Origin: a virus
Lineage: Duplodnaviria > Caudoviricetes
Length of the DNA: 42,059 nt
Direction: 5' to 3' (one strand)
IMG/VR virus record: IMGVR_UViG_3300030376_000797
Coordinates: 1-42,059 of that record
Shown: positions 24,393 through 40,345 of the stretch, piece after piece
Layout of the letters: each line of letters begins with the position of its first letter
Position numbering within the stretch: position 1 is the first letter of the stretch
Position numbers and translations under genes: made by a program
Notes under the pieces: generated by a model
The model's input: only the letters and a program-made list of their open reading frames with translations
Databases searched by the model: none
What the model was told of the DNA's origin: nothing

Positions 24393-25592
24393 ATGGGAAA
24401 TTGGTTATCAGATTGGATAGATACAAGAAGCGGAGCTAATCTAAAAATAGATGCTGACGCTCAACAGGGTCGTTTTAATACAGCGATGAAACCTGTTACA
24501 GAGGGTATGGCTGAGATGAAGGGCATTGTTAAACAACAAATGGACCCTAACTCAAGTCTAAATCAAAACGCTTTAGCAACTTCAAAAGAACAATCAGCAG
24601 ATGATATTGCTGAAGCCAATAGATTAGCAGGTCGTAATGTTGCAATGGGTGGAGGCAATGCTACAGCCGCATCCTTTCTTAGTCAAGATGCTATAAATAA
24701 TATGACTGGTAAAGTTTATTCTGACTTTCAAAACAATATGAATAATAGAACTGAAGCTGGTTTAGAAAGTTTAAGTGGTATATATTCTAATTTAGGTTCT
24801 ATAGCACAGGCTGGATTCAATATGAATGAGTCAGCTTTAGCTAGTAATAAAATGATAGACCGAAACGCAACTATAGCTAAGGGTAATATGCTTGGTGGAG
24901 CGTTAAAGATTGGTGGTGGTTTATTAAGTGGTAACCCAATGATGGCTCTTAGTGGTGCAGGTAGTATGTTGCAAGAAGGTGGACCAGTAGGATATAATAC
25001 AGGTGGTCAAGTAGAAGACCCAGAAAACCCTAAGCCAGTAGGTAATGGTACTTCAGATGAAGACTCAATGTTAGACTTAGCAATGCAACAAAGAAAAGAT
25101 GATGCAAATTTTATGTACTGGAAAAATGCTCGTGGTTATGAAGAGGCAAGAAGCGGAGAAAAGTTTAAAGGATTTGCTAAAGGAATGGTAGGTGGAAACC
25201 TTGCTGGTACTTTATTAAGCACAGTTATCCCGGGAGCTCGGATTCCTGCTACAATAGCCGGTGGGTTATACGGAAGATATAAAGGTGGAAAAAACTTTGA
25301 AGAAGAACACGAAGAAGATTTTAGTGCAGAAGATAGAGCTAGGGTAAAAGAAATAAGACAGAGAAGAAAAGAGGGTTATCAAAAAGGTGGTCAATATAGC
25401 CCACTACCCGGTGATATAGTAGATGCTAAACTAGAACCCGGTGAATATGTATTAAATAGGAATGCAGTTAATACTATAGGTAAAGAAAATCTTGATGAGA
25501 TTAATGAAGAAATATCTCCTAGATTTCCTAAACAAAATCCTGATGATGACCGAAGTATAAAGATGCGAATGGGAGGATACCTATATGGCTAG
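24393..25592 (+). CDS. Internal virion (ejection) protein 1
   Basis: N/Q/A/G-rich helical sequence with Gly-zipper segments and the DIVDAKLEPGEYVLNRNAV motif. Position after the nozzle gene. Confidence 0.65.
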   Translation: MGNWLSDWIDTRSGANLKIDADAQQGRFNTAMKPVTEGMAEMKGIVKQQMDPNSSLNQNALATSKEQSADDIAEANRLAGRNVAMGGGNATAASFLSQDAINNMTGKVYSDFQNNMNNRTEAGLESLSGIYSNLGSIAQAGFNMNESALASNKMIDRNATIAKGNMLGGALKIGGGLLSGNPMMALSGAGSMLQEGGPVGYNTGGQVEDPENPKPVGNGTSDEDSMLDLAMQQRKDDANFMYWKNARGYEEARSGEKFKGFAKGMVGGNLAGTLLSTVIPGARIPATIAGGLYGRYKGGKNFEEEHEEDFSAEDRARVKEIRQRRKEGYQKGGQYSPLPGDIVDAKLEPGEYVLNRNAVNTIGKENLDEINEEISPRFPKQNPDDDRSIKMRMGGYLYG

Positions 25593-27756
25593 TCCATTAG
25601 AAACTTATTTAAGAAAGACTAAACGAAACAATGCACTTATTAATGTAAGTAGGAGAGGTGACCAAGGTGGTGGCTCAGTTTATAATAAAGATGACGAACG
25701 TGCAAAAATAGAAGCAGAGTATCTTGCTAATACAAAGATACCCCAAGCACCAGAATTTAAAGTTACTAATAGTCCAGCAAGAGAAGCTCGAAGATATAGA
25801 GATGCTAATAGAGTTCAAGATGAAAAGATAGTATATGAAGCTAGTATAAGAAATCAATTTGACCAAGCTAGAGGAGTAGGTGGAGATATTGGTTTAAAAC
25901 AAATGCATCAGATAGGTATGAATAATAGAGATGGCGTTAGCATATTTGATAAAATGTATAAAGGTGAAATGACATTTAATGAACTTGCTTCTAATTTACC
26001 TTCAGGTAATACACCTAAACCACCTAGTCTTAATGAAGGTCATAGTAATCAACTAGACCAGATGATAGCTAATGGTGTTACTATGGATGATGTTAGGATG
26101 CAACCGGGTTTAAAAAATGCTGTAAGTAACGCTTCTTTAAAGCAACAAAGAGCCCTTGAGTATAATACTACCAAAGCTAACGATGCTATGGACCTAGCTG
26201 ATAGAACTCAAATGGAATCTGACGCAAGAGATAAAGCTTATAATCAAAAAAGAAGTATGGAAGAAGCCGCTTATAAAGATAAAATGATAACTGAAGGTGG
26301 TAAATCATATTATGGTCCGGGAGTTGACCAAGATAGAATGAACTTACTTGCTAAAGATTTTGTTAAATATGATGATGAAGCACCTTTACATATGGTTTCA
26401 GCTTTAATGGGCGATAAAGACGAGACCGGTGGCTTAATGGGTATGTTAAATATACGTAAAGTTTTAGCTAAAGAAGGAGCAAGTAAAGAACAATTAGCTA
26501 AATTTGATGATTGGGGTCATAGTTCAAGAATTAAAAAGATGGAAAAAGATAACCCTAATAATTTCTTAAATGCAGAACAATTAGCTGATAAAAGAAATAA
26601 AGCAAAGCTTGATGAAATGATGGCTGTTGCTCCAGTTTCTTTATCTAAGGGTAGTAAAGCAAAACCTAGAAAGAAAAGCAAGGCTAGAGAATTATTATTA
26701 ATGGCTCAAAGAGGTGGACAAAAGTTTGCTTCGGGTTTAACTACAAGTAAAGACGACTGGAGGCATAAAGTTGCTGAAGGTGGGTTTATAAGTAAGCTTG
26801 GTGCAGGTAGTAAAGCAGTTTATGATAGATACTTTGGCGATGCTATTGCTTCTTCTAGGTATGATGATATAGCTGAAGGAGATACTTCTTTAGATGGTGC
26901 ACAGATTAAACACAGAAGAGATGCATTAGGAGAAGGTAAAGCTAGTACTGGTGATGTAGCTGGTAAGTTTCTTAGACAAGCGGCTGGAGACACAGTAACA
27001 GGTGCAGGTTTAGCGGCTATGGGAATTGCAGGGGCTCCAGTTGCATTAGCTAAGGGAGCAAAAGCACTATACGACAAAGCAAATGAAGGCAAAGCTGACT
27101 ATGAAGAATTAGCTGAGGGTAAGAAAAAGGGAAGCTTATTACAAAGACTTGGTAAAGGAATGACTTTTGCCGGTAACGCTATAGATATAATGAATGCTGA
27201 TAACCCATCTCTTGAATATGCAAATACTGATATGAAATTCTATGATGGTAAAAGTGATGAAAAAATAAAATCTATAGATATGAGTGAAGCTGGAGATGTT
27301 AATAAACCTGTTGCAGAAACAGAAGAAGCTGTAGAAAACCCAGCTCTTGAAGGCTCTGCATTAAAAGAAACAAATGTTCAAGCTAAAGTAGATGCCGCTC
27401 AAAAAGATATACCTTCTCCATTGTTAACAGATGAAATGGATGCTAGAACAAGACAGCAATTAATGGTAGATGCTGGTTTAGATATTGGTTCAAGTGGAGA
27501 AAACAAAGACGGAGTAGATGGTGACTTTGGTGCTAAGTCTGAAGCCGCTTGGAAAGAGTATACAAGTATGGTGGAAGGTGGAGATTATACCACAGGTGCT
27601 GATGGAAATATGGTGTATGATTTTAGTGGTGGAACTGGTAATGCTATTGTTCCAGAAATAACTGATTACAATAGAAGAGTACCCGGCTTACCATCCATTA
27701 CAAAACAACGAGGTGGATTTATATCAAGGCTCATTAACAACAGGAGAGCATACTAA
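25585..27756 (+). CDS. Internal virion (ejection) protein 2 with peptidoglycan-binding-like motif
   Basis: Low-complexity helical sequence, hydrophobic GAGLAAMGIAGAPVAL segment, and QQLMVDAG...VDGDFGAKSEAAW. Confidence 0.65.
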   Translation: MASPLETYLRKTKRNNALINVSRRGDQGGGSVYNKDDERAKIEAEYLANTKIPQAPEFKVTNSPAREARRYRDANRVQDEKIVYEASIRNQFDQARGVGGDIGLKQMHQIGMNNRDGVSIFDKMYKGEMTFNELASNLPSGNTPKPPSLNEGHSNQLDQMIANGVTMDDVRMQPGLKNAVSNASLKQQRALEYNTTKANDAMDLADRTQMESDARDKAYNQKRSMEEAAYKDKMITEGGKSYYGPGVDQDRMNLLAKDFVKYDDEAPLHMVSALMGDKDETGGLMGMLNIRKVLAKEGASKEQLAKFDDWGHSSRIKKMEKDNPNNFLNAEQLADKRNKAKLDEMMAVAPVSLSKGSKAKPRKKSKARELLLMAQRGGQKFASGLTTSKDDWRHKVAEGGFISKLGAGSKAVYDRYFGDAIASSRYDDIAEGDTSLDGAQIKHRRDALGEGKASTGDVAGKFLRQAAGDTVTGAGLAAMGIAGAPVALAKGAKALYDKANEGKADYEELAEGKKKGSLLQRLGKGMTFAGNAIDIMNADNPSLEYANTDMKFYDGKSDEKIKSIDMSEAGDVNKPVAETEEAVENPALEGSALKETNVQAKVDAAQKDIPSPLLTDEMDARTRQQLMVDAGLDIGSSGENKDGVDGDFGAKSEAAWKEYTSMVEGGDYTTGADGNMVYDFSGGTGNAIVPEITDYNRRVPGLPSITKQRGGFISRLINNRRAY

Positions 27757-29339
27757 TGGCTGAAATTAAACAAACTAGAGTATCAGGCTATATGAATCCT
27801 ATGATGCCTGAGAAAGACGAAGGCAGAGAAGCTATACAGAAAAGACAACTTGCAATGCAAGAAGCTGTAGCAAAATATCAAATAGCTGGTATGAAAGAAA
27901 ATCAGAGAATGCAGGGTATAAATAGAAAAGCAAATGATTGGTTTGCTTCTAATTCTGATTCCTTGTTTTCTCAAACTTCTAATCCGTTAGACTCTAACTC
28001 ACTAAACTTTAGTGACCCTGAAAAAATATCAGCAATGTATAAAAAATACAGAGAAGAAGTTGGTGGCAATTATGATACATTCCAAGAATACATTAAGATG
28101 GGTCAGGCTAATGAGATAAAGAATAATAGAAGACAGCTTGATATAATGATGGATGAGTATGAAAGTCCAAAAGAAGCTAGAAGAGCTATTAATGAACAAT
28201 TACAAGGTATGAGTGAGGGAGATAGGAATAAACTATTCTCTATGCTTGATGAAGAAACTTATTCAAGGTTAAATGAAATTTACGATGTTAATCAAGGTGG
28301 TTTCTTTGATACGTTAATGGAAAATAAAGGTAAGGTAGCAACTGGAATTGCAGTTACTGGATATGGTGCGTATAGATTGTTAAAAGGTAGAGGCGGTGCA
28401 AATGTCATTGATGATATTGTTAAAGCTGGTAAAAAAGGTGTTAAGAAAGGGAAAAAAAGTTCTAAAGCAATTAAAAAAGAAGTATTGCAATTAGGTCCGG
28501 GAGCAAAACAATTAGGACCCGGAGCAAAGCAATTAAGAGGTATGACTAACGACCCTAATACTATTTACGCAGGTGGTAAAAGAGTCCCTTTGATAGGTGG
28601 TAAAGTAAGTAAAGGTCCTAAAACATCGCAAGATTTAGCTAGAGAAGCTATGGAAAAACAGGGTAAAGGTGTACCAAGAGAAGCAAAAATTAAGTTTGAT
28701 AGTAAAAAAATACAAGATGCTGAGTTTGAAGATATAAAAGTTAAATCTAGGCAAGTTATTCCTGACAATAAAATATCTGCTGAAATGAAAATGGTTGGCG
28801 AAAAAATGAGGTCAGGTCAAATTACAAAACTTGAAGCCAAATCTTACAAAGAAGCTATAGAAAGTTTACAAAGACAAGGAACTCCACTTACTAAAGGTGC
28901 TTTAGTTGAGACTTTGAAATCTAGACCGGGAGGAGTTAGATTCTTAGAGAAGATAGCCAATAAAGAGATAGGATGGAAAGGCACTATAGGAGCTGGATTA
29001 GCAGGTGCTTACATAGGTGGTGGTATAATGTCAAAAGGTGCTGAAGCTTTAGGCTTTGGTGAAAAAGGACAGAAAGTTGGTGAGATAGTTGGTAATACAG
29101 GTGGAGCAGTTGGAACTCCGGGAGCCATTAGAGGCTTACAACAGATAGTAAAACAACAAGGTCCTAAGGCTATATACGACAAACTCCTAAAGAAAAAGGG
29201 AGCTAAGTGGGTAGCTAGAAAAGTTGCTACTGGTGCATTAAAAGGATTATTAGGCGGTAGTGGAATTGGAACTGCTTTAGGTGTAGGCTTACTTGCACTA
29301 GACGCAATGGAAATTTATAATATTTTAAAAGAAGATTAA
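27756..29339 (+). CDS. Internal virion (ejection) protein 3, probable membrane-inserting
   Basis: Several Gly-zipper hydrophobic helices (GTIGAGLAGAYIGGG, GLLGGSGIGTALGVGLLAL). Confidence 0.65.
   Translation: MAEIKQTRVSGYMNPMMPEKDEGREAIQKRQLAMQEAVAKYQIAGMKENQRMQGINRKANDWFASNSDSLFSQTSNPLDSNSLNFSDPEKISAMYKKYREEVGGNYDTFQEYIKMGQANEIKNNRRQLDIMMDEYESPKEARRAINEQLQGMSEGDRNKLFSMLDEETYSRLNEIYDVNQGGFFDTLMENKGKVATGIAVTGYGAYRLLKGRGGANVIDDIVKAGKKGVKKGKKSSKAIKKEVLQLGPGAKQLGPGAKQLRGMTNDPNTIYAGGKRVPLIGGKVSKGPKTSQDLAREAMEKQGKGVPREAKIKFDSKKIQDAEFEDIKVKSRQVIPDNKISAEMKMVGEKMRSGQITKLEAKSYKEAIESLQRQGTPLTKGALVETLKSRPGGVRFLEKIANKEIGWKGTIGAGLAGAYIGGGIMSKGAEALGFGEKGQKVGEIVGNTGGAVGTPGAIRGLQQIVKQQGPKAIYDKLLKKKGAKWVARKVATGALKGLLGGSGIGTALGVGLLALDAMEIYNILKED
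28488..28540 (+). repeat. 21-bp tandem repeat (about 2.5 copies) encoding QLGPGAK
   Basis: CAATTAGGTCCGGGAGCAAAA CAATTAGGACCCGGAGCAAAG CAATTAAGAGG. Confidence 0.8.
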
Positions 29340-29342: not shown

Positions 29343-32300
29343 ATGGCACAAGAAGGTTTGTTTGAACCTAAAGCCACGAAGGAACAAACTAGGGCATCAG
29401 TAACAAAATATAGGTTACGCCCTGAGCTTTGGGATGGCAATGAAAAAGAGATAGAAAATCTCAAAAGACACGCAGAACATCATAGGATACCCTTTTCTCG
29501 TAGCGACCAGCATCAAGATAGTTTTCTTTCAGGGGTATTAAAGAACTATGGTAGAGGTGTTATGGAAGGCTATACAGCTAACATAGCACAATTTGATGAC
29601 CAACCAGATACTATAAGTGAAAAAGTAGCTAGACAGCTTGGTTCTCTATCAGGATTCCTTGGTAAATTACCGGGAGGTAAGTTTAGTAAAACTATAAGAG
29701 CTATTAACGCTGTAACAGCAGGAAGGTCGTTACCTTTAGCTGGAGCAAACGCTGTTACCAAGTTTGTTAGTAAAACAGGTAAACCTATTATACGGGATAT
29801 GCCTAATGTTAGAAAATTATTCCAAGAAGAAAATTTAGCTGGTGACGTATTAAAAGGAGCATTTCATCTAGGAACTGCTAGTGCTATATCTGATTGGAGA
29901 GGTGTAGTAGATGAAGGTATGCCTAGACTTATAGACGCATTTAAACAAGGTGGTATTTGGGGTGGTGGTTTTAGAGCTATAGGTAATATGAAAGGCTTTG
30001 GTAAAAGATTACAGCCTCATCAAGTAGACTCAGCAACTATGATGCCTATAATGAGTAAACTAGAGCCCGGTCAAAAGTTTGATGCTATATTAAAAGCTGG
30101 TACTATGGGTGCAATACAGGGTGGGTATGCAACTAGTCTAGACCTACCATTAGAAGAACAAGTATATGAATATGTAATGGGTGCTTACTTTGGTTTTAAC
30201 GAGACTCCACTTCAATTAAGAATATCAAAGAAAGCTATTGCTGAAACTATATCTAAGAAATATGAAGACCCCACTGGATTACCTGACCCAGAGATGCATC
30301 CGAAATGGGATACTTGGACTAATGAAGCACAAAAATATATAAAAAGAGATTTTAAAGAATTTTTTGGTGAAAAAGAAGATGTAAGAAGAGCTACTTATAA
30401 CTTATATAAAAGAAGTTTAGCTAATGGTGAAGTAAACGAAAGAGATATTATTGAAGAAATGGAATCAATGGTAGCTAAAAATCTTGAAGGAACTGAGTTT
30501 GCACCAGATGGTAAAGTAATTAAACCTATTAGTAAAGGTGATTTAAAAAGAGTACAAGATATTATAAAAGACAATCCTAATAAGGAAGAGTATCAAGACC
30601 TTGATATGCACATTAATGAAATATCTAAGTTACCCGGAAAAATATCTGGTCAAGGTGGATTTGTTGATAGATATGTAATGCCTAATATAGAAGGTGGTAA
30701 CACAGCAGATAGATTAGTTGAGTCTATAAAAATTAATAAGCAATGGGATAGTTTACATCAAGTAGTTAATGGCGTTAGTATGCCTAGAAAAGGTGCTGTA
30801 GACGCTATGTACGACTACTTAAAGAAAGAATATAAGCGTACTGATTTATCTCAACCTGAAATGGATTGGTGGAGAAACTGGGCTGAGCAAACTAGAAAAA
30901 AGAAACTTGTATTACAAACATACTTTGCTGATGGTAAAGTTGCTTATGTTGACAAAGGTGTTAACATACTTGGTAATAAAAAAGAATTAGTATTTGAACC
31001 ACCTTTAATGGAACAAGTATATCAACAGTTAGGTGGTGAAGGTAATTTTTATGCTATATCTGACCATTTCGTTAGGAAAGGTAAAGAGTATAAGCTTAAT
31101 GATGTAAATAGATTACAAGCAGATTTAATGAGAGAGAAAGGCGGCAAAAAAAAGAAAGCTGAAAACATCATTAAACAAATAAAAACTAAAATGTTAATGG
31201 AGATGGATAAGGAAGGTTACCATTACGTTGGTGGTCGTGGCGATAAAAAAGCTATGTACTTTGTTAAAAAGAATCCACAAGTAAGAGGTAGTGTTCAAGA
31301 GAATATGCTACAAATAAAGAAAGCTTTTGTAGATGCTGGTATGGATGCTGAAAGATTTGACAATCTTAGAAATTATAGTAAAAGACAATTTTGGGCTAAG
31401 AATAGAATGTTGCGTCAAGATTACTTTGATGAAGCTTTTATAAGCAATATACATTACGATGTATACAATAATTTTGGAGCCAATGTAAAAGACTTTAACA
31501 AAGCCTTGGTTCAAATGTTAAGTAAACCCGGTTATGTTAGCGATTCTAAAGCTTACAATAAGAGAGCACAGATTTGGTTTAATACTGGAATGACTACTAA
31601 TGATAGAGTTGCTAGAGAATACTTAAAGAAATATGCAAAGAGATATAAAGAAAACATAGATGTCTTAGATTTCTTTGGGAGCGATGGAAACTTAAGGGCT
31701 AGAGGTCAGTTTTGGAATGATGATGTAAAAAATTCAAAGAGTAAAAAAGTTCTTCGTAAAAATTCTGAAAGACCTGAATCTTTTGATGGCGGTATACCTG
31801 CACTTCCAGAATTTATATACGCTTTAAACAAGGCTAATGGTATAACTAATGAGGGTGCAGTTAATAAATCTTTTATTGTAGCTCCTAATGGTAGACACGG
31901 AGCATTGCTAGGAAAGTATATGTTCTTTGAAGCTACTCCTGATATGGCGGCTTCAATGAGAAAAGATGGCATACATTTTATTGCACCTAAGTCTGCTATA
32001 AAACAATTTGGCACACGAAGATATGGTGATGTTGTTGAAGCTGGAATTAAAGATAATTATAATAAACAAGATTTTGAAAACGAAGTAAATGCTATGGGGT
32101 TAAAACATAAGAGACATCCGTCTGACCCTGATAGGATAGGTGAAGTTTTTATACCAGCAGATTTGCAAAGACAGGGCTATGGCACAAGGTTCTTAAAAGC
32201 TTTTGAAAGATACAGAGCAAATGAAGGAGCTACTCAAGTAAAGATTAACGCTATTGGTGGTCGTAAAGACTTAGGTAGTTTTGATTTAGACAATGTAAAC

Positions 32301-35300
32301 TTTTGGAAGAAACAAGGTTTTAAAGTAGATACAAAAGAGCTTGAGAAAATGAAGAAAGCTGGTATAGATATACAAAAAATAAAGACTAGCTTTAATCCAA
32401 AAGCAATAGGTAAAACTGTTGGCGTAGTTCCAATGGTAAAAAGTATTAAGTCTAGGGACCAAAATCGTATGCGTTTTGGAGGACCTACATATGATGTTAG
32501 ACTAGATAATATTAGAACAGTACTATCTGAGGTTACAGGCAATAGAGATATGGATGGTGCCAAGTTTGCTAAACAGTTATGGTCTACTATAACGCATTTT
32601 GGAGTCAATCCTACTAACCCTAAGCTTGTTAAGATAATGTCTGATGAGCTAATTAGAAACTCTGTTGAAGGTGATGAGAATTTAAACGCTCAATGGGATG
32701 AGCATATTAAAGCACCAAATAAAGTTTCTGAAGCTAAGGTGTTGGATAACATAGATGAAATTTCATTAAATAGATTAATGAATGCAGTTGTTGATAAAGA
32801 TAATGAAGGATTTGCAAGTAAGATTTACGATAGTATTTTAAAGAAATCAAATGAAATTGAAGCACAAAAAGCAGAAGACTCAGAGACTAATAGAGATGAT
32901 TATTTTAGTGCGGCTGGTGAGATAAGTGAGTTTGATACCATAGTAGATAGGATGGGTGAATTGTATCCAGATGGTAATCTTGGTTTCTATATGCATAAAA
33001 TGGCTAAAAACTATAGACAACAAGCTGTTAAGAATTATATAGTAGATAGAATTAGTAGACCTAAATTAAAAAATGGAATGAAATCAAGAATGAGACCTTG
33101 GGACCATTCTATGTGGAGCCATAAAAAGTTTAACATCTTTGACGACCCAGATGGAAAGGGACAAGAAGTATTTTTCTTAGATGATGGGGCTAAACAAAAA
33201 AAGATATATGACCCGTTTTTTGATAAAGGATATGAGACGCTAGGTAACATATGGAAACAAAGAAAACTAGGCGATAAGGGTATATATAAGGACAATTTAG
33301 ACTATATAGATGACATACTAGAAGCTGTTAATATGAGAGTACCTATGGATTCTCAAAGTGGTGCACACGTTTTAAAGTTTGCTGGATTTACTGGGACCAA
33401 AGGTCACGGAGTTTTATTACACGGAAGAGTGATGGATGCATTAGGTGGTGCAGATTTAGATGGAGACAAAGCTTTTATATTCTTTGGCGGTAAAAAAGGT
33501 ATGCATAAAGAGTGGAAAGATATTTGGAAAGGACAAAGAGACGAATTTATAGATAAGGATGGTAATGAAATGGCGGCTAAATCTGATTTAGCAAGAGCTA
33601 TGTTTGTTAAGTCTGATAAAATTGTAGAAGATTTTGGTCAAAGTAGATTTAGTAAATACGACCCATATTGGAGAGGGTTTATGTCAGAAGCGGCAGGAGA
33701 TGGTCGTGACACTTTAGGAGGTGCTGTAACTACTAGGCAATCACTTGCATCTGCTTATGACGCTATGAGATTTTCTAATACAGCAGACGTTCAAGGTAAA
33801 GTTGTGTATATAAATGGTCAGTATTTACCAAGTATACTAAGGAAGGGTTCTTATTATTATCCTGTTGACATAACAAAGAATAAAAGAATTATTTATATGA
33901 AACAGACTCCTAAACAAAGAGGAGCAGTAGAAAGATTTAAAGAATTAGCAAGAGCCGCTATCAACCTTGGTGCTGACCCTATGGATGAGTCAGGTATTGT
34001 TAGTCCTGATGTAATTAAAGACATACTTACAGACACACTATTTAAATTTGAATATGTTACTGGTAAAAAAGTTGGTAATAAAAAGAATAAAAAGTGGATA
34101 TTTGGAGATAGCTTTGGATATTATAAAGGTAAGAACAATGATAAGGCTAGAGAATTAGCAAGAGTTGATAAAGTAAAAGGTTTTCATTCTATTTATGGAA
34201 GATTAAACAACACTTTATATGGTAGGAATTTTCAAACAGGTAGAAAATATAGTTATGGAGAGATTCAATCTAGTGTTCAAGATATAGATTGGTTACCTAA
34301 TTCTGCTAAACAAAACTTAGTAGGTTATATAGCTAAAGAATATAGAAATATACCATACGAGGATAACGTATTTAGAAGATTAGATAGAAATGCTCTTGAT
34401 GATTTATACAATTCTAATAGAAGAGACTTTGCTGATAACCCTGACTTACTTGCTTTGTTTGAAAGAACAAGTATGATGACTAGAAGGGGACCATTAATTG
34501 ATAATATACTTAATCACGAAATATATGATGCAGATGCAAGGTTAGCATTAGCACATAATAAAAAGAAGTTTTGGGATTTATTTAGCCGTAAATGGCATCC
34601 TCAATTTGACGAACAAGTTAAAGGTGATAAACGATATAAAATGGGTAACGTTCCTGCTCACCTATGGTATAAGTTTGTTAAAAACAGAGAAGCTACTAGC
34701 GTAAATGATAGGTTACAATATTTAGAATATAAATTAAATCAAGCTGAAGATTACATTACTAATGATTTATCCGATATGTCTTCTATTAGACATATACTAA
34801 ATATTAAAAAACAATACAAAATAAGCGATACTCAGTTTAAAAAAGTAAACGCTATGGTTAATGAGTTAAAAATGAACTCATATTATGTTAAAAAAGCTAA
34901 TAAAGAATTAAGAGAAGATGTTAGAGAGCTTGGTCAAAAATTTAAAGGCGATTTTGATAGTGAAAGATTCTTAAAGATGATTGGATTTCGAAAGAAGTCA
35001 GGTGCTGGTATGGACCAACAAGCTGTTGATAGACAGATATTGTTTGATAAAAAACAATTAAAGTTGCAAGGATTGCAGAATCTATATGATTCCTTGTTAT
35101 TGGGTACTTTTCAAAAGACTAATTTAGATTTAATTAAAAAATACGAGAATCAAAAGAAACCTTTAACTCCTTCTGAAAGGTCTTTATTGCAAGTCTTGCG
35201 TAAACACGGGCAAAACACAGCTCTTTTAAGAATAGGGTTCCAGTCTAAATCAGTTAAAGATGGCTCTGTTAAGAAGCATTTAAACGAATATAACAAACTA

Positions 35301-38300
35301 TATAAACAAGTAGCTCAACCTAGTGCTGAAGAAATGAAGCAGATAAAAGATATTGGGGATGGTAACGAATCTCAAAGACCTCCTAGTTATAATGATGAAC
35401 TTGGAAAAATGTCTGAAGGTAAAATTATAGAAGCGTCTGATTTATCTGAAGCTGATAGGATTTATATGGATATGATTGAACCTTTTAAAGGACTTAAGAA
35501 AGGCAATGTAAAAGACAAAGAACTCTATAGAACAATGCTTAGTATAGAAAACCATATGAAACATTATCATAATATGGATACTAGAGCCTTTAACGGTTTT
35601 TTTAGGTCTTTGTTCCAAAAAAATATTAATATGGCTACTAAGTTTGACTTGCAAAACTTTGATAGAATACTTACTGATATGCGTAAAGGTAGTACTTGGG
35701 TTAGATTTACTAATTGGGTTACAGGTAAAAACAAAGAACCTCTACCTGATTTAGAAAAAAGATACTGGTCAAGATTTCCAGAAGCTAATAATAAAGAATG
35801 GTTAAAGTATCCGGGTATGATGAAGTGGGAAAAAGATATTGCCCCTTTTAAAGATAGATTTAACAATAGTATTATGGGTGAAGTAGTAAGACCTACTACT
35901 ATTATGGGTGATTTACAAAACTTTTCTGCTAAAATATCTGAGTTTTCTTTACAAACAAGTGAAGAAGAGACTAATAAACTTAGAGAAGAACTTGCTCCAT
36001 TAATACAATCACACGCAGATGGTCCAGACTTATGGAAGATTGCCATACCTCTAAGAGAAAGAGCTATGGTTTCTTTAATCTCTGAAATAGAAGGCGGCGG
36101 TTCTAAGATGAGCCATAGGCAAATGCATTATATAAGAAATTATGAAGCTGTACAGCCTATGTTACGCAAACTTAAAGATAAACAATACGTAATACCTACT
36201 AAAGATGGTGCTGTTAAAATGAGCGGTATGGACGTTATTAATAAGATAAATGAAATCATCACGAATAAAAACAAGTATATGGCTAACTTTATTAATGGTG
36301 ATGCTGACTATGTAAAACAGTTTACTAAGGTAGCTTATAACAAGCAAGGTCAGTTAACTTGGTCTGGAGTTGATTTAGTTGCTAAGAAATGGATGAGATA
36401 TAGTAAAGAGAAGTTTAGAAAAGGTGAGAAGTATGATATAAGTAAATTTGGAATTAACGGTATTATGGAAATATCTAAGCTTATTCAAATAAAATACACT
36501 ACTCCTAAAAGATTTAGAACTAAAAGATTATTAAAAGAATTATCTGGTCAACTTGGTTTAGGTATGCAAAGAACAGAATTGTGGGACCCTGAAGCTTATT
36601 TTCCTCACGTTGCTTTTGATAGGACTGAAGTTAATAAACAATTATCTAGAGGTTTAGACGCTATATTTGCTGACAAGAAAAAGACTAAAGAAAGAAAATA
36701 TAAAGAAGCTAAGAAATTAATATATCAATCTCATACTATGACTGGTGATTGGGCACCTAAATCTATTAGTGAAGAAAACTTTGATGTTATGCAAGAGACG
36801 TACTCTAAGTTATCTCAAGAAGTAGATAAGAAAAAACCAAGAGCTATACTACCTAATACTTTTAAAAAAGCATTTAGTCAAAATCAAAGAGAGTCACATC
36901 TTGGTGGTTGGTCTAGAGAGTTAGAAGCGTATGAAGCCAATATGAAAAATACTATTGATACTTTTTATAAAGAAAGTATGCTTAGTCTTTCTAGGATGCA
37001 CATACAAGAGTTTCATAGTAAGTTTTTAAAACAGAGTAAGGATAAGAAATTAGCGGCTAGATGGGGCAATTTCTTAAAGCTATTTACTCAATCATCTATG
37101 GGTTACCCTATAGACATACCAGAAGCAATTCAAAACGACCCTAAGATGAAGATAAAAGGAACTCCTTATCAATGGTTTGCTGATAATAATGCTCGTAAAA
37201 GAATAGAATCTATTAAAGAAAAGCTTGGTATAAGTCACAAATCTTTAAAGAAATATGGAATAAAACGCAGTGATGTTGAAGGTTTGCAGGGTATGACACA
37301 AAACCAATTACAATATTGGAGTGGATTAGAAGCTAAATGGCAAATGGCATCATTACTTGCTCACCCTAAGAGTGCTATCACTAACTTGTTTGGTGGTACT
37401 ATACATACTGGTATAGGTGCAGGTGTTCAGAATCTTGCAAAAGCTAGAGACATAGATTACTTAAGAACAAATATTAATCCTAATTGGAGAAGTATGAGGG
37501 ATGTTGAGAAGTGGGTAGAAAGCTTAGGTATTGTTGAAGAATTTCTAATGTATGAGGCTGGGTTAAATAAAGAGATACGTGGTAAAAGAATGGATTCTTT
37601 TCTTAAAGCGGCTATGAGTAAGCTTAGAAGAAATCCTAATCTTAGTGATACCTCACTTGCAGACTTAGCTAAGGAATACAAAGTTACTGACACTATGTGG
37701 AATAAAGCATCTTGGTTTATGCGTAGACCTGAAAGAACTCTTCGTAGAGACGCTTTTATGTCACATTATATCAAGGCTAGAGAAAATTTTAAGGGTGCAA
37801 TAAGAGATTATGACCACCCGTTTTTAATAGAGATGGGGAGAAAGGGTGTACAAGCTACTCAGTTTTTATACTCTGCTCCGTTCAGACCAATGTGGACGAA
37901 CAGTGCCTTGGGTAGGGTAATGTCACGTTTTCAGTTATGGAGTTGGAACTCTGTACGTTTTAGAAAAGACATATTAAGTGAGGTCGGGCAGATGGGATAT
38001 CAACCCGGCACTCCTGAATTTGAACGTGCTAAAAGACTAATTACAGCAGACGCTATGATTTATAGTCTATCAAGTATGTTTATGTATAGTCTTTTTGATA
38101 ACGCACTCCCAGCTCCTTGGAACTGGTTTCAAGATACAGCAGATGCTATGTTTGGTGATGAGGAAGATAGAGAAAGAGCTTTCTTTGGTCACCCAGCAGG
38201 ACCATTATCAATTATTAAACCACCTGTATTTAGATTTGATAAACCTATGTGGGATGGTTTGGTACACGGGAACTGGGATAAAATGACTGATTATTATCTC

Positions 38301-38483
38301 TACACAATGTTACCGTTTGGTAGAATCATTAAGGATGTTGTTGGTCCGGGTGGATATATAGACAATCCATTCTATGCTGTTGAAAAATTTACTGGTGTAC
38401 CTTACATCGGTTTAGGAGATTATTTACAAGATGTTAAGAAAGGAAAGAATGTAGGAAAAGGGTTGTTCTCTGATTTATATTAG
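29343..38483 (+). CDS. Giant ejected polyvalent protein: putative virion two-barrel RNA polymerase with inserted GNAT domain
   Basis: FDG (D at aa 815), K842, K858, SAIK (884-887), Q1078, RVP (1332), GADLDGD (DLDGD at aa 1371-1375, nt 33453-33467). GNAT motifs QRQGYG (942-947) and FWKKQGF. Confidence 0.8.
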   Translation: MAQEGLFEPKATKEQTRASVTKYRLRPELWDGNEKEIENLKRHAEHHRIPFSRSDQHQDSFLSGVLKNYGRGVMEGYTANIAQFDDQPDTISEKVARQLGSLSGFLGKLPGGKFSKTIRAINAVTAGRSLPLAGANAVTKFVSKTGKPIIRDMPNVRKLFQEENLAGDVLKGAFHLGTASAISDWRGVVDEGMPRLIDAFKQGGIWGGGFRAIGNMKGFGKRLQPHQVDSATMMPIMSKLEPGQKFDAILKAGTMGAIQGGYATSLDLPLEEQVYEYVMGAYFGFNETPLQLRISKKAIAETISKKYEDPTGLPDPEMHPKWDTWTNEAQKYIKRDFKEFFGEKEDVRRATYNLYKRSLANGEVNERDIIEEMESMVAKNLEGTEFAPDGKVIKPISKGDLKRVQDIIKDNPNKEEYQDLDMHINEISKLPGKISGQGGFVDRYVMPNIEGGNTADRLVESIKINKQWDSLHQVVNGVSMPRKGAVDAMYDYLKKEYKRTDLSQPEMDWWRNWAEQTRKKKLVLQTYFADGKVAYVDKGVNILGNKKELVFEPPLMEQVYQQLGGEGNFYAISDHFVRKGKEYKLNDVNRLQADLMREKGGKKKKAENIIKQIKTKMLMEMDKEGYHYVGGRGDKKAMYFVKKNPQVRGSVQENMLQIKKAFVDAGMDAERFDNLRNYSKRQFWAKNRMLRQDYFDEAFISNIHYDVYNNFGANVKDFNKALVQMLSKPGYVSDSKAYNKRAQIWFNTGMTTNDRVAREYLKKYAKRYKENIDVLDFFGSDGNLRARGQFWNDDVKNSKSKKVLRKNSERPESFDGGIPALPEFIYALNKANGITNEGAVNKSFIVAPNGRHGALLGKYMFFEATPDMAASMRKDGIHFIAPKSAIKQFGTRRYGDVVEAGIKDNYNKQDFENEVNAMGLKHKRHPSDPDRIGEVFIPADLQRQGYGTRFLKAFERYRANEGATQVKINAIGGRKDLGSFDLDNVNFWKKQGFKVDTKELEKMKKAGIDIQKIKTSFNPKAIGKTVGVVPMVKSIKSRDQNRMRFGGPTYDVRLDNIRTVLSEVTGNRDMDGAKFAKQLWSTITHFGVNPTNPKLVKIMSDELIRNSVEGDENLNAQWDEHIKAPNKVSEAKVLDNIDEISLNRLMNAVVDKDNEGFASKIYDSILKKSNEIEAQKAEDSETNRDDYFSAAGEISEFDTIVDRMGELYPDGNLGFYMHKMAKNYRQQAVKNYIVDRISRPKLKNGMKSRMRPWDHSMWSHKKFNIFDDPDGKGQEVFFLDDGAKQKKIYDPFFDKGYETLGNIWKQRKLGDKGIYKDNLDYIDDILEAVNMRVPMDSQSGAHVLKFAGFTGTKGHGVLLHGRVMDALGGADLDGDKAFIFFGGKKGMHKEWKDIWKGQRDEFIDKDGNEMAAKSDLARAMFVKSDKIVEDFGQSRFSKYDPYWRGFMSEAAGDGRDTLGGAVTTRQSLASAYDAMRFSNTADVQGKVVYINGQYLPSILRKGSYYYPVDITKNKRIIYMKQTPKQRGAVERFKELARAAINLGADPMDESGIVSPDVIKDILTDTLFKFEYVTGKKVGNKKNKKWIFGDSFGYYKGKNNDKARELARVDKVKGFHSIYGRLNNTLYGRNFQTGRKYSYGEIQSSVQDIDWLPNSAKQNLVGYIAKEYRNIPYEDNVFRRLDRNALDDLYNSNRRDFADNPDLLALFERTSMMTRRGPLIDNILNHEIYDADARLALAHNKKKFWDLFSRKWHPQFDEQVKGDKRYKMGNVPAHLWYKFVKNREATSVNDRLQYLEYKLNQAEDYITNDLSDMSSIRHILNIKKQYKISDTQFKKVNAMVNELKMNSYYVKKANKELREDVRELGQKFKGDFDSERFLKMIGFRKKSGAGMDQQAVDRQILFDKKQLKLQGLQNLYDSLLLGTFQKTNLDLIKKYENQKKPLTPSERSLLQVLRKHGQNTALLRIGFQSKSVKDGSVKKHLNEYNKLYKQVAQPSAEEMKQIKDIGDGNESQRPPSYNDELGKMSEGKIIEASDLSEADRIYMDMIEPFKGLKKGNVKDKELYRTMLSIENHMKHYHNMDTRAFNGFFRSLFQKNINMATKFDLQNFDRILTDMRKGSTWVRFTNWVTGKNKEPLPDLEKRYWSRFPEANNKEWLKYPGMMKWEKDIAPFKDRFNNSIMGEVVRPTTIMGDLQNFSAKISEFSLQTSEEETNKLREELAPLIQSHADGPDLWKIAIPLRERAMVSLISEIEGGGSKMSHRQMHYIRNYEAVQPMLRKLKDKQYVIPTKDGAVKMSGMDVINKINEIITNKNKYMANFINGDADYVKQFTKVAYNKQGQLTWSGVDLVAKKWMRYSKEKFRKGEKYDISKFGINGIMEISKLIQIKYTTPKRFRTKRLLKELSGQLGLGMQRTELWDPEAYFPHVAFDRTEVNKQLSRGLDAIFADKKKTKERKYKEAKKLIYQSHTMTGDWAPKSISEENFDVMQETYSKLSQEVDKKKPRAILPNTFKKAFSQNQRESHLGGWSRELEAYEANMKNTIDTFYKESMLSLSRMHIQEFHSKFLKQSKDKKLAARWGNFLKLFTQSSMGYPIDIPEAIQNDPKMKIKGTPYQWFADNNARKRIESIKEKLGISHKSLKKYGIKRSDVEGLQGMTQNQLQYWSGLEAKWQMASLLAHPKSAITNLFGGTIHTGIGAGVQNLAKARDIDYLRTNINPNWRSMRDVEKWVESLGIVEEFLMYEAGLNKEIRGKRMDSFLKAAMSKLRRNPNLSDTSLADLAKEYKVTDTMWNKASWFMRRPERTLRRDAFMSHYIKARENFKGAIRDYDHPFLIEMGRKGVQATQFLYSAPFRPMWTNSALGRVMSRFQLWSWNSVRFRKDILSEVGQMGYQPGTPEFERAKRLITADAMIYSLSSMFMYSLFDNALPAPWNWFQDTADAMFGDEEDRERAFFGHPAGPLSIIKPPVFRFDKPMWDGLVHGNWDKMTDYYLYTMLPFGRIIKDVVGPGGYIDNPFYAVEKFTGVPYIGLGDYLQDVKKGKNVGKGLFSDLY

Positions 38484-38525
38484 AAAGTTCGCACCCTGCT
38501 CTCTATCCTGTTTTTAAAATATAAC

Positions 38526-38562
38526 GCTTAAGGGGGACCCATCGAAAAATCCCCCATTAAGC
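38526..38562. terminator. Stem-loop between convergent late and early operons
   Basis: GCTTAA-GGGGGA-N12-TCCCCC-A-TTAAGC in the 89-bp convergent gap. Confidence 0.6.
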
Positions 38563-38572
38563 TTAGACCGGA

Positions 38573-38794
38573 CTATGGCAAATTAGTACGTGTTATCGGC
38601 AACACTACGGTCTCAAAATATTTGCATCCATCAGGATTACATTCTTTGCCTTGCATTTTAGAATCTATTCTAAGGTATATACTACCATCATTTGTGCATT
38701 TTATCATACATCCCATACACCTACCTACATCATAGTTAGCACAAAATAACTGAGCTGGTCTATTGTTTTTCATCTTTATACTCCATACCAACAT
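38573..38794 (-). CDS. Small Cys-rich protein (likely start ATG at 38773)
   Basis: CANY...CMGC...CNPDGCKYF. A GGAG SD precedes the MKNN start. Confidence 0.6.
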   Translation of the reverse strand: MLVWSIKMKNNRPAQLFCANYDVGRCMGCMIKCTNDGSIYLRIDSKMQGKECNPDGCKYFETVVLPITRTNLP

Positions 38795-38957
38795 TAATCT
38801 TGATACTTGGTTGAGATAAAGTTTGTTTACTTTTTTTAACCTTAATTTGATTAGCGTGGTAATTAGCCCATAGTTTTAACGCCGCACGTTTACGCTCCGA
38901 CATATCAGTTACTAACTTTGCATCTTGCCCTTTGTAGGGTCTTTGTTTTCTTTTCAT
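38760..38957 (-). CDS. Small basic hypothetical protein
   Basis: TAGGAG SD 5 nt before ATG; 65 aa. Confidence 0.65.
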   Translation of the reverse strand: MKRKQRPYKGQDAKLVTDMSERKRAALKLWANYHANQIKVKKSKQTLSQPSIKINVGMEYKDEKQ

Positions 38958-38976
38958 TATAACTCCTACATTTAAA

Positions 38977-39075
38977 ACAAGGTCCCCTCCTACTATCTAC
39001 TATACGTTGAGAGATAAGACACTGCCGTGTAAAGAACTTCGTTGTATAGTGTCATACTTCGGTCAGGGACCTTGC
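38977..39075 (-). ncRNA. Candidate structured RNA B (three-way junction)
   Basis: Perfect 9-bp closing stem (38978-38986/39066-39074) extended by G.U on the minus strand. Inner stems at 39018-39023/39048-39053 and 38994-38998/39012-39016. Confidence 0.55.
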
Positions 39076-39082
39076 TAAGTTT

Positions 39083-39225
39083 ATTAGGGAAAGTGGTGCC
39101 AACCAAGAATTAAACAACTTTTATCTGTCATCCAGTTTCTAACTCTTAAGGAAATCTAAGCATTATGCTATCGTTGACTTCGAGAAGAGCAACTACTCAC
39201 CTGAGTAGATTTAACTTTCCCTAAT
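39083..39225 (-). ncRNA. Candidate structured RNA A (multi-branch, possible pseudoknot)
   Basis: Perfect 12-bp closing stem (39083-39094/39214-39225), hairpin 39193-39208, and a 10-bp helix 39105-39114/39138-39147 with two minus-strand G.U pairs. Confidence 0.6.
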
Positions 39226-39227
39226 TA

Positions 39228-39665
39228 TTAATCGCAATTAGAACCGGGTATACATTTAGTAAACTCCCCAGTTCTTTGCAAATTCTGTTCGTCTTCTTTA
39301 TTCCAATTACAATTTTCTTTCATACTTTTCATCAAATCGTTGACTTTGTGTCCATATTGTATTTGATTTTCTTCAAAGGCTTGAGAACTTAATAAAGACA
39401 TACCTTTAAATATGATTGCAAGTTCATCAGGTTGTACTGTTTTCTTGTTGTTTCTCCTGTCTGCCTTTTCTTTATCATACTGTTCAAGTAATACTGCGGC
39501 TAGATAAACTACTAAATCAATCATTTCTTCTGTTGATTCTTTTAAGTTATCTCTGCCACCCTCTCCGTTTAGAGGTATATCTTGTCCATATTTCTTTTGT
39601 CCTAATTTTAGTCTATCTTTAACAAGATTTAATACTCTATCATTAGTGTTCATTTTCATTACCAT
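39228..39665 (-). CDS. All-alpha NTP pyrophosphohydrolase-like protein
   Basis: GQKKYG...LKESTEEMIDLVVYL (ExxEExxD pattern). Confidence 0.55.
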   Translation of the reverse strand: MVMKMNTNDRVLNLVKDRLKLGQKKYGQDIPLNGEGGRDNLKESTEEMIDLVVYLAAVLLEQYDKEKADRRNNKKTVQPDELAIIFKGMSLLSSQAFEENQIQYGHKVNDLMKSMKENCNWNKEDEQNLQRTGEFTKCIPGSNCD

Positions 39666-40093
39666 CTGCCTCCTTTGGCAAGTTTTCTCATTACATATTT
39701 ATTTAGTTCGTCTGGTAATCCACCTACTAATTGCATTAACAATATAAAGTCTTGCTCATCTAACGGTCCCTTTCTTGTATTACAAGTCTTACATATTAAT
39801 TGTAAGTTTTCTTTTGTGCTCGGTCCGTTTTTAGCAAGGGGTATGATATGGTCACAGGCTATATTTCTATAGTCTAATCTCTTATCACAGTAACAACATC
39901 CTTTTCCGTATATATCATAAAACATTTTTCTTATATCTGTTTTATCTATAGTGCATTTTACGTTCGCTTCTATACTCCTTCTTTTTAGAGAAGACATTAG
40001 CGTAGACATTTTTGAAGATAACTTTTTATAAGCTTTGTTCCAGAATGTCTTATGTATAGGATATAGTTTTTCTTTAAATTGTTCTTTTTTCAT
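39659..40093 (-). CDS. HNH endonuclease
   Basis: CCYC...DHIIPLAKNG...NLQLICKTCNTRKG. Confidence 0.92.
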   Translation of the reverse strand: MKKEQFKEKLYPIHKTFWNKAYKKLSSKMSTLMSSLKRRSIEANVKCTIDKTDIRKMFYDIYGKGCCYCDKRLDYRNIACDHIIPLAKNGPSTKENLQLICKTCNTRKGPLDEQDFILLMQLVGGLPDELNKYVMRKLAKGGRW

Positions 40094-40101
40094 AATGCTG
40101 T

Positions 40102-40127
40102 AGGGGGATAGGATTAACTACCCCCCT
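40102..40127 (-). promoter_or_regulatory. GC-rich stem-loop just upstream of the HNH start codon
   Basis: Minus strand AGGGGGGTAG-TTAATC-CTATCCCCCT, 10 bp with one G.U and no U tract. Confidence 0.55.
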
Positions 40128-40135
40128 TTAGTTTG

Positions 40136-40345
40136 TTACGCTAGAGTATACTCTGCGTATTTGTTACCAGTATGTGACTCAATCTTGTTGGTCTTTACTT
40201 TGTGACCATCTTTTCTTAAGTCGCATATTACAGCCGCTAACCTAAAACATCCACACGAATTTAAAGCTAACATTGGATTAACTTTAACTCCGTCTTGTAA
40301 CATTTTTAGTATCATTGACTTTTGGGATTGTTTCTGTCTTGGCAT
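40136..40345 (-). CDS. Winged helix-turn-helix protein
   Basis: SQKSMILKMLQDG...RLAAVICDLRKDGHKVKT...YAEYTL; AAGGAG SD. Confidence 0.8.
   Translation of the reverse strand: MPRQKQSQKSMILKMLQDGVKVNPMLALNSCGCFRLAAVICDLRKDGHKVKTNKIESHTGNKYAEYTLA

Follow-up and report, generated by a model that had tools for sequence, protein, structure and literature searches.

A GNAT-fold domain predicted within a barrel loop of a putative virion RNA polymerase from uncultured marine phages

The giant protein encoded in the window (the whole 42,059-nucleotide stretch of viral DNA analysed) is predicted to be a two-barrel RNA polymerase of the QDE-1/gp66 type in which a GNAT acetyltransferase is nested in a loop of the non-catalytic barrel, both folds forming, in the models, within one chain (Table 1). 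The lineage carrying this GNAT-inserted polymerase consists of uncultured marine phages. Because the predicted GNAT sits inside the predicted polymerase, an enzyme that modifies proteins likely enters the host along with the viral transcription machinery. We think it somewhat probable that the GNAT, lodged in a loop of a virion polymerase, is co-injected cargo that acetylates host proteins at the onset of infection.

Table 1. Features of the window that bear on the giant protein and its setting
Feature	Position (nt)	Strand	Remark
Terminase large subunit	2696-4213	+	Pfam/PHROG
P22-like portal	4232-6424	+	Pfam/PHROG
SU10-type major capsid protein	7403-8719	+	Pfam/PHROG
Three ORFs without cysteine (399, 723, 527 aa), 5' of the polymerase gene	24393..29339	+	
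ORF of the 3,046-aa giant protein	29343..38483	+	putative virion RNA polymerase, one chain with two barrels and a GNAT insert
Predicted non-catalytic barrel (DPBB-B / DPBB1), aa ~785-1059, split by the GNAT	31695..32519	+	secondary structure of the model
Inserted compact GNAT, aa 902-1039, 138 residues	32046..32459	+	limits approximate (aa ~902-1039)
Beta4 (RIGEVFI, aa 931-937) and motif A (QRQGYG, aa 942-947)	32133..32183	+	predicted acetyl-CoA pyrophosphate-binding loop
NVNFWKKQGF, aa 984-993	32292..32321	+	N, F, W, K, K, G invariant in 8/8 aligned members
Helical connector beginning K1077-Q1078, helices aa 1077-1238	32571..33056	+	model
Predicted catalytic barrel (DPBB-A)	33063..33485	+	R1332-x-P1334; D1371-L-D-G-D1375 at nt 33453-33467
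C-terminal half, aa 1601-3046	34143..38483	+	resembles uncharacterised phage proteins

The GNAT insert

The preliminary description had proposed a GNAT at residues ~900-1035, and every motif that it quoted is in frame: nucleotides 32040-32450 read as residues 900-1036 of the 3,046-residue protein, with VKINA at 966-970 and PMVKSI at 1030-1035. The insert model is a compact GNAT (pLDDT 86.5) whose elements run helix, short strand, beta4, motif A, alpha3, beta5, alpha4, beta6, variable loop and closing strand. Motif A in GNATs is the acetyl-CoA pyrophosphate-binding loop; both glycines of QRQGYG are invariant in the eight of eight aligned carriers, and a helix comes next in the model.

The profile search that had been suggested as a check matched the isolated segment to four GNAT Pfam families, the best being Acetyltransf_10 (E 8.8e-5). 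Since the scores fall under the curated cut-offs in every case (14.7 against 20.7 bits for Acetyltransf_1, 22.6 against 27 for Acetyltransf_7, 22.9 against 23.6 for Acetyltransf_10), the insert is assigned to the GNAT superfamily and to no named family. Acetyltransf_1 and Acetyltransf_7 match all eight aligned clade members at E<=0.1 (best 9e-7), PHROG matches carry the label 'acetyltransferase' only, and NCBIfam gave no match at E<=0.1. A composite GNAT pattern, composed after the sequences had been viewed, occurs in exactly the nine insert-bearing members of 121 and in none of 2000 shuffles of the protein.

All listed Foldseek and VIA matches of the insert model are acetyltransferases or other GNAT-fold proteins. 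The best Z is 8.4 (rmsd 3.0, 92 aligned), values of 7-8 being middling by the tool's own grading; Foldseek reached a best E of 1.6e-3, with none at E<=0.001. In the ESM Atlas the best score was 0.93, and ten of ten named matches came from one clan. Because protein, small-molecule and aminoglycoside acetyltransferases tie in this search, the substrate class cannot be read from the fold. Among the tied GNATs is AcrVA5 (PDB 6IUF), a minimal GNAT of which 86 of 95 residues align to the insert (Z 7.2, rmsd 3.0) at 17% identity in the structural alignment; it is a stand-alone protein rather than an embedded domain, and is missing from the insert's 18 PDB sequence matches at E<=1.

Ahead of beta4 the model has one helix and one short strand only, so that the part which binds the substrate in typical GNATs, the N-terminal half, appears to be reduced. 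In many GNATs, moreover, a catalytic Tyr occupies a position at which the insert, by alignment, has Trp. Together with the sub-threshold Pfam scores, these features would suit a catalytically idle fold that has been kept for binding or for structure, comparable to the inserts without enzymatic function in bacterial beta subunits. Lineage-specific inserts of that kind, beta-i11 and BEAN, likewise lie in a beta-type barrel region, within its C-terminal half, and are given no catalytic role in the accessible parts of their descriptions (PMC2939025, PMC11515920). We nevertheless regard an idle fold as very improbable: conservation is focused on the CoA-binding motifs rather than on the remaining insert, active GCN5 likewise has no Tyr at the position concerned (YFKKQGF, aligned with NVNFWKKQGF), and AcrVA5 is active with only 95 residues.

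The polymerase core and the insertion site

The model of core plus insert (pLDDT 87.5, pTM 0.83) has as its closest structural matches Neurospora QDE-1 (2J7N, 7Y7P; Z 17.8, rmsd 3.6, 410 aligned) and phi14:2 gp66, a crAss-like virion RNA polymerase (PDB 6VR4; Z 13.0, rmsd 4.4, 533 aligned), with RDR2 at Z 15.5 and P74 gp62 at Z 14.7; gp66 is the sole Foldseek match at E<=0.001 (3e-6). GNAT matches within this model are restricted to model residues ~203-342. Like gp66 and QDE-1, the protein is predicted to have one chain with two barrels and a helical connector; R-x-P and DxDxD motifs are shared as well and so, in the first barrel, are a conserved Asp and conserved basic residues. The link came from fold prediction alone: sequence searches detected no similarity to gp66, QDE-1 or other solved structures, and tblastn of the core found no match in 50,697 phage records. 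Nor did a viral fold library give any match at E<=0.001. The accessible parts of the gp66 and QDE-1 descriptions mention no GNAT.

By order and spacing, D815, K842, K858 and K887 would be the counterparts of QDE-1 D709, Q736, K743 and K767, and Q1078 that of Q797, in a connector that spans 793-919 in QDE-1. R1332, P1334, D1371, D1373 and D1375 are kept in 121/121 aligned sequences, as are K842, K858, K887 and Q1078; D815 is kept in 119, the other two having alignment gaps. The insertion site follows K887 and precedes the last strand of the non-catalytic barrel, and beta-i11 presumably lies in the same inter-strand segment, going by E. coli numbering. SAIK (884) and AKQL (1076), between which the segment had been placed, flank it, the segment being inside the predicted barrel region, and a stretch of 30 residues in QDE-1 (K767 to Q797; PMC9508822 numbering) is equivalent to 191 residues here. 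The description of the GNAT as lying within the polymerase core holds in that it is inside the non-catalytic barrel, but the placement is less disruptive than those words imply, because the site is a variable loop that has also received unrelated inserts.

Distribution and integrity of the insert

Homologues were aligned (120 of 133 matches listed and used), and the GNAT is present in 9 of the 121 sequences, K887 and Q1078 being 187-205 residues apart in these carriers. A listing of loci covered 80 of 190. A short loop (39-69 residues between the same two positions) occupies the site in 110, and two have unrelated inserts (141 and 161 residues); the absence of the segment from these homologues agrees with the original proposal. 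The nine carriers form one clade with support 1.0 in a tree computed without the insert. Values of dN/dS for beta4-beta6 in three pairs are 0.02, 0.06 and 0.06, whereas the core has 0.09-0.13; non-synonymous changes behind the three beta4-beta6 values number 1, 3 and 3. The insert is under purifying selection.

The clean pattern of presence and absence, and the abundance of introns and of inteins among crAss-like phages (PMC7886860), might suggest that the insert is selfish or artefactual (an intein, an intron or a misassembly) and is missing from the mature protein. That reading is largely refuted, and we give it almost no credence. The insert is in frame in all carriers, is under purifying selection and has no cysteine; it shows no Hint or homing-endonuclease match, no splice-junction residues and no flanking repeats. 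Its composition is that of the rest of the gene (GC 33.3 vs 33.8%, GC3 23.2 vs 22.6%), and the joined form was absent in four of four runs examined, in contigs, which drop rare variants. Two other metagenome contigs, one of which may be the source sample, match without gaps at 99.8% and 99.9% identity over 8.9 and 7.8 kb, and a contig of another study covers 31200-33400 unbroken with 34 substitutions and zero gaps. The insert is not an assembly artefact.

Virion packaging and ejection

The polymerase and the three adjacent ORFs contain no cysteine in 4,695 residues, against 0.67% in 15 other ORFs of the window, and the 120 homologues listed contain one in 358,579. Lack of cysteine also characterises the ejection proteins of N4/DEV (PMC11445570). 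As judged from two observations, gene position and the absence of cysteine, the giant polymerase is likely packaged in the virion, and the three upstream ORFs, which have no Pfam or PHROG match, likely encode co-ejected proteins; the co-injection proposed from the sequence thereby gains support.

Giant injected proteins that combine unrelated domains have precedents among the polyvalent proteins, which include N4-like virion RNA polymerases fused to metallopeptidase, lysozyme or ART domains; GNATs are listed there among the domains as predicted protein modifiers and assigned to two families (PMC5512222). The present protein is alike in joining a polymerase and a GNAT, as its relatives join SLOG or AlkB-type domains. 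It differs in that the polymerases of that survey, as far as its accessible text goes, are T7-type and its GNATs typically stand beside ART domains, whereas here the polymerase is two-barrelled and the GNAT is nested in a barrel. A GNAT inside a two-barrel polymerase was not found in searches of the open-access literature, a point on which the supplements and figure alignments of PMC5512222 may bear. The nearest named clusters of the C-terminal half score 0.96 (LPD39 on 28% of members) and 0.94 (LPD38 on 63%), a weak lead to polyvalent proteins at a recognition score of 1937, under the mark of 2300; no Pfam LPD match was found in the 3,046-residue protein, nor, by motif scan, HExxH. Many polyvalent proteins, though not all, have LPD domains or a zincin hub.

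The same GNAT in a second family, and other cargo

A second family of giant proteins has a GNAT of the same subfamily (hhalign 98.4%, E 9e-15); it is located upstream of DxDGD by 0.9-1.2 thousand residues and upstream of the first barrel motif by ~770. It lies there outside the core and varies in place, standing either before or after an HEYxH motif. Its DG, Lys and DxDGD columns being invariant, the second family is probably a polymerase; its profile matches that of the window's family weakly (E 8e-4, probability 25%). Most members were located via the GNAT itself, which biases its frequency in this family, and three (L086, L090 and L092, two of them cut at the 5' end) had no GNAT match. Tetrahymena GCN5 aligns gaplessly but weakly to the second family's GNAT (E 0.08). 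The same GNAT is also found in P0130, P0136 and L093, possibly partial or split proteins, without a visible DxDGD; for P0147 no locus was found. As a separate observation, the nearest relatives of the GNAT lie mostly within DxDGD-bearing giants, which is equally compatible with a polymerase-linked role.

Within the polymerase family, a cpYpsA SLOG domain occurs in 7 of the 120 homologues listed, some of its sites preceding the core and others following DxDGD, and one homologue has an AlkB-type domain; whole-protein Pfam scans covered 31 of the 120 and precomputed annotation the remainder. ASCH-like, DUF4326-like and zincin-like inserts, picked out by eye in P0049, P0087, P0040 and P0090, were unsupported by Pfam and were set aside. 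Stand-alone relatives of the insert numbered 3 among 1381 candidates, namely one polymerase-family fragment and two generic GNATs (E 5e-3 and 9.5e-3); fused longer relatives numbered 0 among 296 candidates of 241-2000 residues, a range that makes this weak evidence.

Possible roles

Three uses had been listed for the domain. Acetylation of host targets is favoured, and self-modification and acetyl-CoA sensing less so, since this GNAT subfamily also turns up away from the core, in another family of giant proteins, and since SLOG or AlkB-type domains are found at other places in relatives, which points to cargo acting on host proteins and not to a regulator of the polymerase. The giant protein would be packaged late and then ejected through the envelope with its three neighbours, and polymerase and GNAT would refold in the cytoplasm. 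Using host acetyl-CoA, and ahead of all phage gene expression, the GNAT might then acetylate host proteins of transcription or defence at lysines or N-termini, in the manner of Rac and AcrVA5. The loop may have been chosen because it tolerates inserts, the fusion ensuring delivery and timing rather than allosteric control.

Rac (LUZ19 gp28, of a phiKMV-like phage) shuts down host transcription in a manner that requires its acetyl-CoA pocket (PMC7552054). It too is a GNAT encoded near the polymerase gene of a phage with its own RNA polymerase, a likeness at superfamily level; unlike the insert, it is a separate protein made during infection, neither fused nor injected, and it triggers cleavage of the host alpha subunit. 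AcrVA5 is a broad protein acetyltransferase that disables Cas12a (10.1101/2021.11.16.468554).

The domain might instead act on a nucleic acid or small molecule, such as incoming phage DNA (protected in a Mom-like way), the nascent RNA, an aminoacyl-tRNA, or else a polyamine or defence signal, its tether to the polymerase bringing it beside its substrate. The insert is basic (pI 9.8), SLOG and AlkB-type cargo act, by family annotation, on nucleotides or nucleic acids, the fold search has small-molecule GNATs among its tied best matches, and Mom-family GNATs acylate adenine in phage DNA (PMC7824862). We consider this unlikely, as neither Mom nor tRNA-acetyltransferase families appear among the Pfam, PHROG and NCBIfam matches, the characterised enzymes suggested by sequence, all weak leads, include the protein acetyltransferases Naa30, GCN5 and RimI, and the GNAT of the second family is far from the first barrel motif and varies in place.

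Control of its own polymerase is quite unlikely in our estimate; here the GNAT would acetylate the enzyme or the proteins ejected with it, or else the barrel loop would shift on binding of acetyl-CoA, tuning transcription to the host's carbon state. The insert begins 15 residues past K887, whose putative counterpart, QDE-1 K767, touches product and NTP phosphates (PMC9508822); DxDGD occurs in four of the six long best matches outside the polymerase family, and gp66 is self-inhibited until delivery. Yet the 112 of 121 homologues without the GNAT retain the same catalytic residues, the loop varies in length and has accepted two unrelated inserts, and in the second family this GNAT is placed outside the core, before or after HEYxH; it also occurs in P0130, P0136 and L093, possibly partial or split proteins, in which no DxDGD is visible. 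It is similarly improbable that the GNAT takes part in transcription as a component of the complex, marking nascent RNA or entering DNA or gating initiation on host acetyl-CoA, a role that would explain why the same subfamily joined the virion polymerases of two distant phage families.

If the domain is active, a pre-formed acetyltransferase would be delivered ahead of phage gene expression, much as with T4 Alt or Rac, and candidate enzymes against host defence could be drawn from this natural source. The predicted structure implies that a two-barrel RNA polymerase can house an enzyme-fold domain inside a barrel. An unannotated family of >120 putative phage virion polymerases also comes to light, which picks up cargo at several loops (GNAT, SLOG, AlkB-type). 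The system lends itself to direct tests, since natural insert-plus and insert-minus homologues exist and the 138 residues are predicted to fold by themselves; the loop might also serve as a fusion site when single-chain polymerases are engineered.

Genome context and host signals

The window has an estimated completeness of 80%, and the longest contig of the polymerase family is 57.8 kb. A crAss-like phage genome is ~100 kb. Placement in the Crassvirales was considered and rejected: the core has no tblastn match in the phage records searched, none of four capsid matches is crAss-like, and the contigs are small, the family differing from the crAss-like phage of gp66 in contigs only to ~58 kb, a P22-like portal and an SU10-type capsid. 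A promoter scan of 38000-42059 gave 15 sites against 15.0 expected, and repeat searches yielded nothing convincing. One RNA run contained two 151-nt contigs 3' of the GNAT insert and zero across it, an observation given no weight as evidence of expression.

No host is assignable: the phages in culture that resemble the window in terminase, capsid and helicase (about 24-31% identity) have many different hosts. Family members in genome bins carry the conflicting labels Saccharibacteria, Bacteroidota, Rhodothermales and Rhodospirillaceae, and are probably mis-binned phage contigs.

The insert as a predicted GNAT domain

A GNAT acetyltransferase had been proposed within the polymerase core of the 3,046-aa giant protein, and the GNAT and polymerase motifs quoted in the preliminary description were all found, in frame. 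In profile searches the isolated segment (aa 902-1039) matched Acetyltransf_10 (E 8.8e-5), Acetyltransf_7, Acetyltransf_1 and GNAT_acetyltr_2, all under the cut-offs, as well as two PHROG acetyltransferase families; Acetyltransf_1 and Acetyltransf_7 also matched 8 of 8 carriers in an eight-carrier alignment, and the ESM Atlas gave GNAT clusters, mostly viral, at 0.93. An AlphaFold2 model of the segment (pLDDT 86.5) adopts a predicted GNAT fold, its structural neighbours among the matches listed being acetyltransferases or other GNAT-fold proteins (Z up to 8.4). The modeled domain is compact, with beta4 preceded by one helix and a short strand, and AcrVA5 is similarly so, 86 of 95 residues aligning to the segment model (Z 7.2).

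The insertion site

Sequence searches against solved structures and 50,697 phage records did not identify the core of the giant protein. A model of aa 701-1600, built from a 70-sequence alignment, has as its best structural matches QDE-1 (Z 17.8), RDR2 (15.5) and P74 gp62 (14.7), followed by phi14:2 gp66 (Z 13.0) and P23-45 gp96 (Z 10.0), and gp66 held the top Foldseek rank (E 3e-6). In this model, which takes in core and insert (pLDDT 87.5, pTM 0.83), GNAT matches were restricted to model residues ~203-342, so that a single chain is predicted to adopt both folds.

DPBB1 of QDE-1 comprises residues 690-792, or 680-782 by the figure legend (PMC1750930), its functional residues are D709, Q736, K743, K767 and Q797 (PMC9508822), and the connector begins at 793 (10.1101/2020.03.07.982082). 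In the giant protein D815, K842, K858, K887 and Q1078 are conserved, D815 and K842 lie 27 residues apart, as do D709 and Q736, and the modeled connector helices start at 1077. The two sets are taken to correspond in that order, given their sequence and spacing along the chain and the match of the core as a whole, which aligns ranges and not residue pairs. The insert starts 15 residues past K887 and is followed by strands at aa 1044-1046, 1050-1053 and 1057-1059; the first barrel would thus be interrupted ahead of its last strand, in keeping with the original placement of the GNAT inside the barrel region. In the alignment of many relatives the site is the tip of an apparent short hairpin.

Distribution and history

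A homologue search found 133 proteins, of which 120 were listed, giving 121 sequences with the query. Their alignment, proposed in the preliminary description, shows where the insert is present and where it is absent: the GNAT occurs in 9 of 121, all nine with a K887-to-Q1078 spacing of 187-205 aa, this spacing is 39-69 aa in 110, and homologues P0086 and P0105 have unrelated inserts at the same site. The fragment P0123 is a tenth carrier. Of 190 viral loci 80 were listed; nine of these have the GNAT, and one more locus of the clade leaves the site uncovered. The nine carriers group with support of 1.0, within a clade of 40, in a FastTree tree of 441 columns from which the insert was left out, and these sequences point to one insertion event, retained as the core diverged to 55% identity.

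The GNAT insert in the predicted barrel is real. Its junctions recur in other assemblies, its base composition is that of the rest of the gene, and an insert-free form was not seen in any of four runs; a selfish element or an artefact is extremely improbable. Many GNATs have Tyr where the insert has Trp, a replacement that, by analogy, does not imply inactivity because GCN5 has Phe there. That the GNAT fold is idle also seems highly unlikely: dN/dS, from small counts in three close pairs, is 0.09-0.19 over the insert, 0.02-0.06 within beta4-beta6 and 0.09-0.13 across the core.

Genome context and probable delivery

The window, an entire virus record of 42,059 nt, has a CheckV completeness of 80%, and its features are collected below. 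The antisense ORFs are probably shadows of plus-strand codons.

Features of the window
Feature	Position	Strand	Remark
Terminase, P22-like portal, SU10-type capsid protein		+	
Collagen-repeat fibre protein, long	15306-16775	+	virion module
Glycoside hydrolase family-108 endolysin	18334-18819	+	virion module
Metallophosphoesterase	19063-19863		virion module
Giant protein gene	29343-38483	+	3,046 aa; last on + strand
Antisense ORF	31706-32014	-	across polymerase gene
Antisense ORF	32234-32608	-	across polymerase gene
Gap between convergent modules	38483-39228		no ORF of at least 80 aa
Terminator-like hairpin	38927-38940		in gap
Terminator-like hairpin	39193-39208	both	in gap
DnaB helicase, Gp157, HNH genes		-	
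Replication module	39228-42059		

No cysteine occurs in the giant protein or in the three ORFs that precede it (4,695 aa in total), 15 other ORFs have 43 in 6,434 aa, and the 120 listed homologues have one in 358,579 residues, held by P0102; cysteine is present in 42 of 54 small GNAT matches. N4/DEV virion polymerases, like the proteins ejected alongside them, show such suppression, a suggested consequence of periplasm passage (PMC11445570). Given the absence of cysteine and the position of the gene where the virion module ends, ejection of the giant protein is likely.

At the DNA level the replication module shares 93-98% identity with that of three related loci (L004, L005, L012) whose giant proteins share only 54-58% with the one here, and 91% with that of L002, where the giant proteins share 97%. 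This discordance suggests recent recombination between phages with a common host, the break lying close to where the convergent genes end. At least half of the words of 31500-33500 were present in 14 public runs from seven studies, and one of these runs may be the source; ten are labeled marine or seawater and four only "metagenome".

A second family of giant proteins

A profile search with the insert gave 74 matches at E<=0.001 among 1.84 billion representatives. Beyond its own family, long single-GNAT matches include P0128, P0135, P0147 and P0162 (2,015-2,791 aa, with DxDGD), which are mutually homologous and resemble the window protein in the GNAT only; the GNAT profiles of the two families match (98.4%, E 9e-15). 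In this second family the GNAT lies 0.9-1.2 thousand residues upstream of DxDGD, with a HEYxH motif following it in P0135 and P0147 and preceding it in P0128. At the P0135 locus, a viral contig of 46.7 kb, the giant gene likewise points toward a DnaB module. By their sequences these proteins are probable virion two-barrel polymerases.

Second-family genes occur on contigs of up to 55 kb (L084:10001-21133, L085:8685-20893, L086, L088, L090, L092), the giant gene being followed at each locus by one of ~1,130-1,255 aa; the L084 genes had no PHROG annotation. Six giants (P0128, P0130, P0135, P0136, P0147, P0162) have exactly one cysteine each, in the last four residues, which may serve as a packaging signal or for modification of the C terminus. 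At L093:5176-7725, an ORF cut by the locus end encodes 850 aa with a related GNAT (aa 242-358) and no DxDGD. Giants P0125, P0126, P0127, P0133, P0157, P0165 and P0186 have 2-6 GNAT-like repeats each, P0157 with an additional ADP-ribosyltransferase domain.

Possible function

The preliminary description offered host proteins, the polymerase itself or acetyl-CoA sensitivity as objects of the GNAT. The best-supported reading, and a reasonably probable one, is that it is injected cargo: the polymerase-GNAT chain would enter the cell and the GNAT would acetylate host proteins. This reading draws on the seeming indifference of the GNAT subfamily to position, on the retention of the same polymerase catalytic residues by most relatives without a GNAT, and on known phage GNATs with such roles. 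Cas12a is one of many proteins acetylated by AcrVA5 (10.1101/2021.11.16.468554), and Rac requires its acetyl-CoA pocket to trigger cleavage of host RNAP alpha (PMC7552054). A polymerase-linked role fits the repeated company of GNAT and DxDGD proteins equally; self-regulation of the polymerase or acetyl-CoA sensing is quite unlikely. The middling Z-scores of the segment model fix the fold and not the substrate; a nucleic acid or small molecule as substrate is unlikely, and polyvalent-protein GNATs are predicted to act on proteins (Iyer et al., PMC5512222, PMC7824862).

Each ingredient is known singly: virion two-barrel polymerases (gp66; P23-45 gp96, 10.1101/2022.12.01.518664), beta-type barrels that carry inserts (PMC2939025, PMC11515920) and GNATs in injected proteins. 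What appears to be new is an enzyme-fold domain nested in the barrel of a two-barrel polymerase of this type, of which searches of an open-access library showed no case.

Other cargo

Among the 120 listed homologues, seven have a cpYpsA SLOG domain (four after the catalytic motif, three before the core) and one an AlkB-type (2OG-Fe(II)) domain. Cargo hot spots lie after DLDGD (P0034, P0064, P0076, P0096) and before the core (P0042, P0100, P0112, P0122, P0097), and hold cpYpsA SLOG, AlkB-type 2OG-Fe(II) and sub-threshold DUF4326 domains. Many further inserts of 90-360 aa cluster at few sites, near window-protein positions ~300-450, 650 and 1385-1408. The picture is of a delivery scaffold that takes cargo at permissive loops. 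In P0098, DLDAD replaces DLDGD, recalling the non-glycine motif of gp66.
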